Counted from the first letter of the stretch, positions 47,102 to 49,588 are shown. The stretch is DNA of 64,000 nucleotides from Curvularia clavata (GCA_023920165.1 CP089278.1:434001-498000); one strand, 5' to 3'. Notes: generated from the sequence alone by a model not told the origin. Numbers and translations: made by a program.

Positions 47102-49588
47102 TCCGTGCCAAGGCGTAGCTTATAACTAAGCTACGTCAGCTGCGCTGACACTCGCCGCAGGCGAGTGCCGACCCTCAATACGATATTACCTTCAATACGA
47201 TATTTTTTCAACTACCTTTAATAAACTATCAAATTGCTACTCAACCACGCCAGTTTTCGTACTAATTTTCGTACGCTAGTAAACCTACAGCACATATTAA
47301 TGCCCACACCCGCTGTAATTGTTTATGTACTAGTTAGTAAGCTTAGAAATACCGCTTTTTTTTCATAACTAGCATGCCCTTTATCTTTGAATATTCAAAT
47401 ATAAGCTGGCTTAACTCAGCTGCAAGCTTATTTTAAACCATCTTTCGTGCCAAATAGGAGTAAATAACTTCTATTAAAGATTTAAAAATTGTACAAGTCT
47501 TTTATTAGCGTAATCGCCGTGATTATACAATCGAAGTCATAGTACGTAGTTTACCAATTACTTAGTCTCTAACAATAGACATATTATACGCTCTAAATAA
47601 CGTACGTTTTACGTTATCGCTAAGCTCCTTATTCTCTAGATAATAGTTAATATTGCGCTTAAGTGTCCGGATCGTTAGAGGCGTGTTTAGCTCTAGTGGT
47701 AGTAGTGTTCTATCTATAGTAGCGTTGCTGCTACTATCACTACTACTACTGCTAGTATCTTGGCAATCAGCGTTCTAATTAGCAAAATCTCTCTATATAT
47801 TATTCTTGATACGCTTAATATCTAACAGATATAATCCTAAGTCCTACTAGCCTTTTTATATTATACGGGACTTGAATGTATAGGCGCAGATTGACTTAAT
47901 AGCAGCTAGGAACTCAATCTTGTTAAAAGCTGTACAGCCTGTTCGGGTTGCATAATTAATAGCCTGCGCGTACTAGTACTTGTACGGCTAAAAACAGTCT
48001 ATATTAAGCGGTTAGAGAAAGTAAGATATATATAGAGGTAGGTAATAGGCAATAACCTTATAATCCTCAAGAACTTCGAGAAACTCTTAGGTGCAGTATA
48101 AATCAAATCTATTAAATAAAAGCAGCCGATACAACCCTTACATATGCTTTTAGCTCTATTATACAAAGTGCTTTACCCACTTAAAACTCAATCGATCATT
48201 TATATAGCCAGTGTCGCTATACGTAATAAGATAGTTATCAGGTAAATTAGTAAAGTAGCGCTCAAGAAGTGCGTCGTCTTTAATAATAATTATTAGTAGG
48301 ATAGCGTGGCCTGCGGCATTAATACACTCGGTAACAGTCAATAATGTACGATTATTAGGCGTCGGCAGATAGACGCGGCGGCGAGGTTTAAAAGTAATAA
48401 CCCACTAGTCTTTTCTAATTCTAATACGAAAGCCAGTCTCATCAAAGTTCCAAATATCTAATGGTGGAATACCATACGTCTAAATTAGGCTCGTAAAGAT
48501 ATTAAACCACTCAATAATAGAGTCTAAATTATACGCGAGTACGCGATTAAGATTAAGAAATCTCTATTATCGTACGTAAAGCTCAGATTGCTGTTTAAGC
48601 CATCATTTTGCCTATCGCGAGCTTACAGTTAGTAGAGGACCAGGACTATTGTCAGAAGCTCAGCCCTGTGCCACTGGGCCACTGCAACCAAAAAGGTACG
48701 AGTAATCAGCGTTCTGCTGATGCTCTGCACAGGATAGTATATATAGTCAGCGCAGCGCCTGACATTATCCCCCCCTTTTCTAGGGCCTAGCCTCTAGGCC
48801 AATCGCCATAGAGCGCTCTCTAGGGATACTCTATATACTAGACCTCCCAGCAGCTTACAGAATACTAGAGTCACTCTAGCTATTCTTCAGTCCTCTAAAT
48901 AGACTGGCTATGCTGTGACTAGAGCTAGAATCGAACCCGGCACCTCCGGCATCTCCGGCACCCAGTAGATCCGGCAGATCCGGCGCTCAATAGAAGCCCC
49001 AGCAGAACGCTGATTACTATGTCAGAAGCTCAGCCCTGTGCCACTGGGCCACTGCAACCAAAAAGGTACGAGTAATCAGCGTTCTGCTGATGCTCTGCAC
49101 AGGATAGTATATATAGTCAGCGCAGCGCCTGACAACTATTATAAGCTTATTAAAGAAGATAATTAGCATATAATATAATTATAGGCAGTCGTACACAAAC
49201 TCTAAGTTCATTAAGACGTGCGATATAATTATATAGTGCTTAGTCTTACGCCTTAGCAAGCTTATATATGCCGGAAAGGCGTTTAGAATATATTAGGCGG
49301 CCCTTTAATTAGGCGAGTAATCGCTGGTATAGAATACCGTATTCACGCGCAAACTGCTTAAAATTCGGCTTTAGGATATTCTTAATAGACTCTAAGATCT
49401 CTATAATACGATCATTAATTAAAGTTTGTAATTAAGCCATTGTAGAGGCTATAAAAGAGGATTAAAGTAGTAGAATTATAAAAAAAATATTGTATTAAAG
49501 GTAATATCATATTAAGGGTCGGCACTCGCCTACGGCGAGTGTCAGCGCAGCTGACGTAGCTTAGTCATAAGCTACGCCTTGGCACGGA
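47102..49588 (-). mobile_element. pogo/Fot1-like DNA transposon, heavily RIP-mutated, interrupted by a nested LTR element
   Basis: ~107-bp TIRs (TCCGTGCCAAGGCGTAGC...); TA duplication at 47100-47101 and 49589-49590; minus-strand remnants QFAREYGI (HTH), DIWNFDETGFRI and a decayed YLP...L*PLN..CF*PYK; many TAG/TAA stops. Confidence 0.92.
48650..49134 (-). mobile_element. Non-autonomous miniature LTR retrotransposon (TRIM), 485 bp
   Basis: Two identical 115-bp LTRs (48650-48764, 49020-49134) with TGTCAG...CTGACA ends; 5-bp TSD ACTAT; minus-strand polypurine tract AGAAAAGGGGGGGATAA abutting the left LTR; 255-bp non-coding interior. Confidence 0.93.

Follow-up and report, generated by a model that had tools for sequence, protein, structure and literature searches.

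A 64-kb window of Curvularia clavata DNA (GCA_023920165.1 CP089278.1:434001-498000; the window is the whole stretch that was analyzed, and all coordinates below are positions within it) contains a miniature long terminal repeat (LTR) element of 485 bp at 48650-49134, in minus-strand orientation, whose primer-binding site (PBS) is a perfect complement of a segment of its own LTR. Judged from its sequence, this is quite probably a non-autonomous element of the TRIM type (terminal-repeat retrotransposon in miniature) from a filamentous fungus, with reverse transcription that would be self-primed in the Tf1/sushi manner. The open reading frames (ORFs) of the window match TCO89, a fungal RRM domain, DUF2433, PTPA, HBS1 and others, and the window is therefore fungal.

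The central observation concerns the PBS, a 19-nt site reading AGTAATCAGCGTTCTGCTG on the minus strand (49018-49000). It is separated from the 5′ LTR by one base, a spacer T at 49019, and lacks an initial TGG. If LTR positions (p) are counted from the U3 end, p being 49135 less the coordinate, the PBS is the reverse complement of p46-64 (49089-49071, minus strand, with a copy in the 3′ LTR at 48701-48719) at 19 of 19 positions. This segment, the predicted self-primer and presumed 5′ end of the transcript (the start of R), begins 18 nt downstream of a TATATATA box in the U3 of the 5′ LTR (49115-49108, p20-27, minus strand; copy at 48738-48745), a putative TATA box with a presumed promoter role. 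When the LTR was shuffled 20,000 times, no shuffle attained the observed 19 nt; the best complement where the PBS lies reached 13 nt, and did so once. Moreover, apart from two short palindromes, the PBS and its LTR complement form the only perfect inverted repeat of at least 15 nt within 200 nt in the whole window. A first-pass annotation of this DNA, made from the sequence alone, had described a PBS that lacks an initial TGG and is perfectly complementary over 19 nt to an LTR segment about 20 nt after the TATATATA box; the sequence and the shuffle test confirm the complement, the missing TGG is borne out, and the spacing is 18 nt when measured. The self-priming that it proposed stands insofar as the PBS can pair with a segment of the element's LTR shortly after the TATA box, an arrangement resembling that of Tf1-type elements, while the mechanism itself we infer from the anatomy.

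Structure prediction is consistent with this pairing. In the predicted fold of an RNA starting at 49089, the first 19 nt pair with the PBS in a 19-bp duplex that closes a U5 stem-loop, with a minimum free energy of -46.9 kcal/mol (z -4.72; 1 of 200 shuffles folds as well), and predicted pair probabilities between primer and PBS are 0.65-0.75 in the near full-length RNA. The predicted fold also contains, directly after the PBS, a long imperfect hairpin of repeated GCCGGA units in the interior (about 48923-48999, minus strand), a candidate packaging or dimerisation signal that could serve in capture by the Gag of a partner element.

The remaining anatomy is that of a very small LTR retroelement. 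The two LTRs (48650-48764 and 49020-49134) are 115 nt each and 100% identical, start with TGTCAG and end with CTGACA (TG..CA), and constitute the sole direct repeat of at least 40 nt in the window. A polypurine tract, AAAAGGGGGGGATAA (minus strand, 48779-48765; AAAAGGGGGGG plus ATAA), immediately adjoins the LTR at 48764-48650 on its upstream side, from which it follows that the element reads on the minus strand, with 49134-49020 as its 5′ LTR and 48764-48650 as its 3′ LTR. The internal region (48780-48999, minus strand) is non-coding: there are no ORFs of at least 20 amino acids starting with ATG inside the element, and the sole ORF listed begins outside, at 49169. Copies of a 5-bp target-site duplication, ACTAT, flank the element on the left (48645-48649) and on the right (49135-49139). 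The size, identical 115-bp LTRs, ACTAT duplication, polypurine tract, minus-strand orientation and absence of an ORF had all been reported in the first-pass annotation, and all are present. At 485 bp (below about 1 kb), with 115-bp terminal direct repeats, a polypurine tract, a 5-bp duplication and no coding capacity, the element has the architecture of a TRIM.

Fungal chromoviruses have long been known to self-prime, and TRIMs, originally defined in plants, have since been reported from animals and from fungi. [quoted passage not shown] As in Tf1/sushi elements, the PBS here follows closely on the 5′ LTR, and what it complements is not a tRNA but the stretch of the element's LTR in which the mRNA is expected to begin; a central duplex of primer and PBS with an adjoining U5 stem-loop is predicted, the target-site duplication is 5 bp, and the host is a fungus. 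[quoted passage not shown] It departs from these elements in having an LTR of only 115 bp and a total length of 485 bp, in the side duplexes of the pretzel, which are unsupported here, and in carrying no gag-pol, so that it cannot be placed in a clade by a chromodomain or by phylogeny of reverse transcriptase or integrase. Furthermore, its complement is 19 nt, compared with 11 nt for the self-primer of Tf1.

The likeness to TRIMs extends to the size below 1 kb, the lack of coding sequence, the 115-bp terminal direct repeats, the position of the PBS, the polypurine tract and the 5-bp duplication. The definition given in a study of bivalve TRIMs comprises terminal direct repeats of 100-250 bp, a length below 1 kb, no coding sequence, a tRNA-complementary PBS, a polypurine tract and a 5-bp target-site duplication, and the relevant passages of that study raise self-priming only as a possibility (PMC6934838). 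The textbook PBS pairs with a tRNA, whereas the one described here is complementary to the element's own LTR and no tRNA-like match is present in the element; because of this difference we class it as being of TRIM type with another mode of priming. Full-text literature searches found no paper describing a self-priming TRIM or large retrotransposon derivative (LARD). A self-priming TRIM is an expected consequence of a non-autonomous element keeping the cis-signals of its parent.

To place the element beyond the window, we used an index of public sequencing runs, in which 20 runs from 18 studies hold element sequence, and compared four of them over 48000-49800. Two are DNA with the same species label (X1 and X2), one is an oligo-dT metatranscriptome (X3), and one carries another species label and is guessed to be RNA (X4); all four were available as assembled contigs, which show presence and joins and never RNA ends or levels. 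Runs X5-X20 share 0.07-0.28 of the sampled words, values that carry no evidence on habitat, host range or horizontal transfer. The insertion itself is recorded in the two DNA runs. In each of X1 and X2, three contigs from diverged paralogues of the host transposon are empty sites that join 48643/48647 to 49134/49138, skipping exactly 490 bp, the length of the 485-bp element plus one ACTAT. This gap in the paralogues indicates that the ancestral transposon lacked the element and that the element is a true insertion with a 5-bp duplication. An exact left-junction contig is also present in both runs (48477 or 48483 to 48674), extending only 25 nt into the LTR, compared with a bridge threshold of 31. 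The G-run of the polypurine tract, the predicted plus-strand primer, is polymorphic in length at 48769, where the majority of the depth in X2 (106/133.8) is one G shorter than the window and X1.

Among the alternatives to a self-priming TRIM, the one that survives best, though we regard it as unlikely, is a one-off internal-deletion derivative of a full-length self-priming retrotransposon, generated by template switching or recombination, with no propagating miniature family. TRIMs originate as internal-deletion derivatives in any case, and blastn searches with the element, the LTR and the interior recovered only the element itself, a single copy, in the window. The DNA runs tell against a one-off event. 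The exact interior contig in X1 (48735-49049) has a depth of 273.2, compared with 92.8 and 126.3 for exact unique flank contigs (about two- to threefold), and the exact interior in X2 has a depth of 106, compared with 55.6 and 55.7 for unique flank contigs (about twofold). Both strains also contain a second copy with the same LTR-interior-LTR structure that is about 10% diverged, the X1 contig of 378 nt carrying 39 differences and the X2 contig of 332 nt carrying 35, and sequence 100% identical to the element occurs in two further studies (X3 and X4). In addition, the depths of LTR-matching contigs in X1 sum to 1,335-3,677, compared with 366 for the interior, the LTR edges have loose ends that continue into other sequences (3 in X1 and 3 + 2 in X2), and other LTR junctions number at least three per strain. 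Taken together, the depth, the diverged copy and the LTR junctions speak against a lone copy; the single-copy deletion derivative, which the first-pass annotation had named among the outcomes that would refute its proposal, is countered by the extra copies and LTR junctions of X1 and X2. Two unrelated loose ends, at 48764 (X2) and before 49004 (X3), have a 10-letter word in common, oppositely oriented with respect to the LTR, and the X3 loose end also shares a 10-letter palindrome-like word with the element interior near 48921-48930; homology between relatives, nested insertions or chance may account for this.

The element is likewise present in the RNA-type libraries. A 369-nt contig in X3 (48696-49064) and contigs spanning 48732-49072 in X4 are 100% identical to it, and both runs have zero depth on the multi-copy flanks. 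These silent flanks favor element RNA over contaminating genomic DNA, provided that the fungi in X3 and X4 carry the same host transposon. The ends of the X3 contig (48696 and 49064) were considered as a polyadenylation site and a transcript start, and this interpretation was rejected, as a cyclic word graph broken by a single variant fits better; the uncovered parts of the LTR in X3 and X4 are not readable as transcript ends. A second X3 contig, with a depth of 2.2, shares 49004-49044, which comprises the terminal 25 nt of the LTR, the spacer T and the 15 nt with which the PBS begins; it has one other letter there and then continues for 134 nt with a different interior. By its sequence, this contig is a relative with the same priming module, and the PBS is common to two elements. 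It is possibly the autonomous partner, which we offer as a lead and not as a finding.

A second alternative, to which we assign very little probability, is that a cellular RNA, such as a tRNA cut short in its anticodon loop, primes reverse transcription, and that the LTR segment was derived from that primer RNA. The precedent is Helenus/TRIMp3, presented in the pertinent sections of Kojima (2024; PMC10886601) as fungal TRIMs with a tRNA-like sequence in the LTR, PBSs directed to the anticodon loop and Copia partners, most of the fungal Helenus families being reported there with PBSs complementary to tRNA anticodon loops. These elements resemble ours as miniature non-autonomous LTR elements of fungi with a 5-bp duplication and a non-canonical PBS, but ours has no tRNA-like (or 5S) sequence in its LTR or interior and a PBS that pairs with the LTR. 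No Rfam family, tRNA and hammerhead included, matched 48640-49145 at E values up to 10, ARAGORN found no tRNA gene in the window, and a wider Rfam scan (44000-54000, E up to 1) returned nothing relevant, its one weak miRNA-like match lying elsewhere. A cellular primer is also at odds with the absence of an initial TGG and with a complement that is perfect over 19 nt exactly where the transcript is expected to start. A possible relic of a tRNA T-arm in the interior (GGTTCGATTCT, near 48931-48941) was considered as well and is unsupported by ARAGORN and Rfam.

It is similarly hard to credit that the 19-nt inverted copy of the LTR segment is a by-product of rearrangement with no priming role, and the element a dead relic. 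The side arms of a Tf1-type structure, unsupported against shuffles, would fit such a relic. Its placement would not, as it lies one base after the LTR, the canonical position of a PBS; in the second X3 element the end of the LTR and 15 nt of the PBS are retained despite a different interior, and the element described here combines identical LTRs and freedom from decay of the type left by repeat-induced point mutation (RIP) with presence in RNA-type libraries. Finally, retrozymes are LTR elements of the non-autonomous kind that carry hammerhead ribozymes and yield circular RNAs, and although the element resembles them as a small non-coding LTR element abundant in RNA libraries with an X3 contig of about one LTR period (a length that would be expected from the word graph of any LTR-interior-LTR sequence), this identity is excluded by the lack of a hammerhead or any other Rfam match at E values up to 10.

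Several results weigh against a self-priming TRIM, in addition to the Helenus precedent. The two side duplexes of the Tf1 pretzel are no better than in shuffled sequences (79, 336 and 236 of 500 as good). Summed contig depth is not copy number. RNA libraries can contain DNA, and the flank control is conditional on the shared host transposon. The 5′-most contig bases, 49064 in X3 and 49072 in X4, fall short of the predicted start at 49089 in assemblies that cannot show starts, and the X3 contig, whose 369 nt are one below the LTR period of 370 bp, gives no information on RNA ends. None of the 25 ORFs of at least 200 amino acids in the window has a reverse transcriptase, integrase or Gag domain, so the window holds no autonomous partner, and a six-frame Pfam scan with stops read as X detected only relics of DNA transposons and no reverse transcriptase, integrase or Gag. 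Among viral contigs, the 15-nt core gave 81 single chance matches and no copy of the element; among metagenome contigs, the 19-nt site occurs at 8 loci, and blastn of the element against all 89 of these loci returned only a 21-nt chance match.

Starting from the pairing potential, the insertion with its 5-bp duplication and the extra copies, all of which are observed, we infer a start site, a cleavage, a partner and a polyadenylation site that would together give the following cycle. Transcription by RNA polymerase II would begin within the 5′ LTR, some 20-30 nt past the TATATATA box and at 49089 or close to it (p46-50); p50 is where the 15-nt complement kept in the X3 relative starts. The leading 15-19 nt of the transcript would fold back over the 51-nt U5 to pair with the site one base past the LTR, and the reverse transcriptase/RNase H of an autonomous relative, acting in trans, would cut the RNA at the end of the duplex. 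The freed 3′ end would then be extended through the 51-nt U5, and the resulting short minus-strand DNA would be transferred to the copy of R in the 3′ LTR, a transfer that requires the putative polyadenylation site to lie downstream of p65. The polypurine tract would prime the plus strand, and insertion of the 485-bp DNA by integrase would produce the 5-bp duplication. Should plus-strand synthesis copy the RNA primer while this is still joined to the minus strand, the PBS would be renewed from the LTR in each cycle, which would explain the perfect 19/19 match. The partner is likely, not certainly, a Ty3/Gypsy element in a fungus, the reservation being that plant Tcn1 chromoviruses and TAR Copia elements are predicted to self-prime as well (PMC6317226).

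The element is inserted in a multi-copy, RIP-like relic of a pogo/Fot1-type DNA transposon (47100-49590, minus strand), which is delimited by 109-nt terminal inverted repeats (TIRs; 47100-47208 and 49482-49590, 94% complementary) and retains a DDE_1 relic at 47955-48341 (PF03184, E 7.1e-08, from the Pfam scan with stops read as X). Next to it lie two Tc1/mariner-type relics, one at 49611-51090 with 45-nt TIRs and a DDE_3 relic, and one at 51146-52679 with 82-nt TIRs and an HTH_Tnp_Tc3_2 relic. The three decayed DNA transposons stand side by side (47100-52679) and form an AT-rich block at 46-52 kb, the first of them being interrupted by the element. The many stop codons and transition-rich paralogues of this transposon nest point to RIP; the flanks are multi-copy, and the differences among their copies are mostly transitions (215 of 228 listed places in X1). 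Bordering the nest is the end of a DUF7735-domain gene (45502-45714, plus strand; E 2.6e-18).

Within this RIP-like DNA, the element itself is free of RIP-type decay, with a GC content of 0.52 and a RIP index, (CpA+TpG)/(ApC+GpT), of 1.49, compared with 0.368 and 0.73 in the left flank. The proposal of the first-pass annotation that the element escaped RIP is consistent with these values, and its proposal of recent activity agrees with three features: LTRs that are identical, the absence of decay of the RIP type, and copies at 100% identity in four runs. RIP has a size threshold, and small size is a plausible reason for the evasion; the existence of the copy diverged by about 10% in X1 and X2 leaves this explanation less settled.

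The element leaves knowledge of the self-priming mechanism itself unchanged. It suggests that the cis-acting set for self-primed reverse transcription, namely promoter, self-primer, U5, PBS and polypurine tract, fits in 485 bp, and recognition and cutting of the RNA duplex could be studied on it as a very small substrate. Tentatively, and with the odds in our judgment somewhat against it, the element could represent a widespread and previously undescribed class, the self-priming TRIMs of filamentous fungi: RNAs of about 0.5 kb with a complete cis-set and a PBS rewritten in each cycle, missed by PBS finders based on tRNAs, active despite RIP, transcribed in environmental samples and 100% identical across differently labeled runs. 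If this is the case, the length of the complement would mark the transcript start. Annotation tools that seek a tRNA-complementary PBS are likely to miss or mislabel such elements. Collectively, these results suggest that self-priming fungal retrotransposons can carry miniature hitch-hikers, and that such elements can stay intact in RIP-affected genomes.

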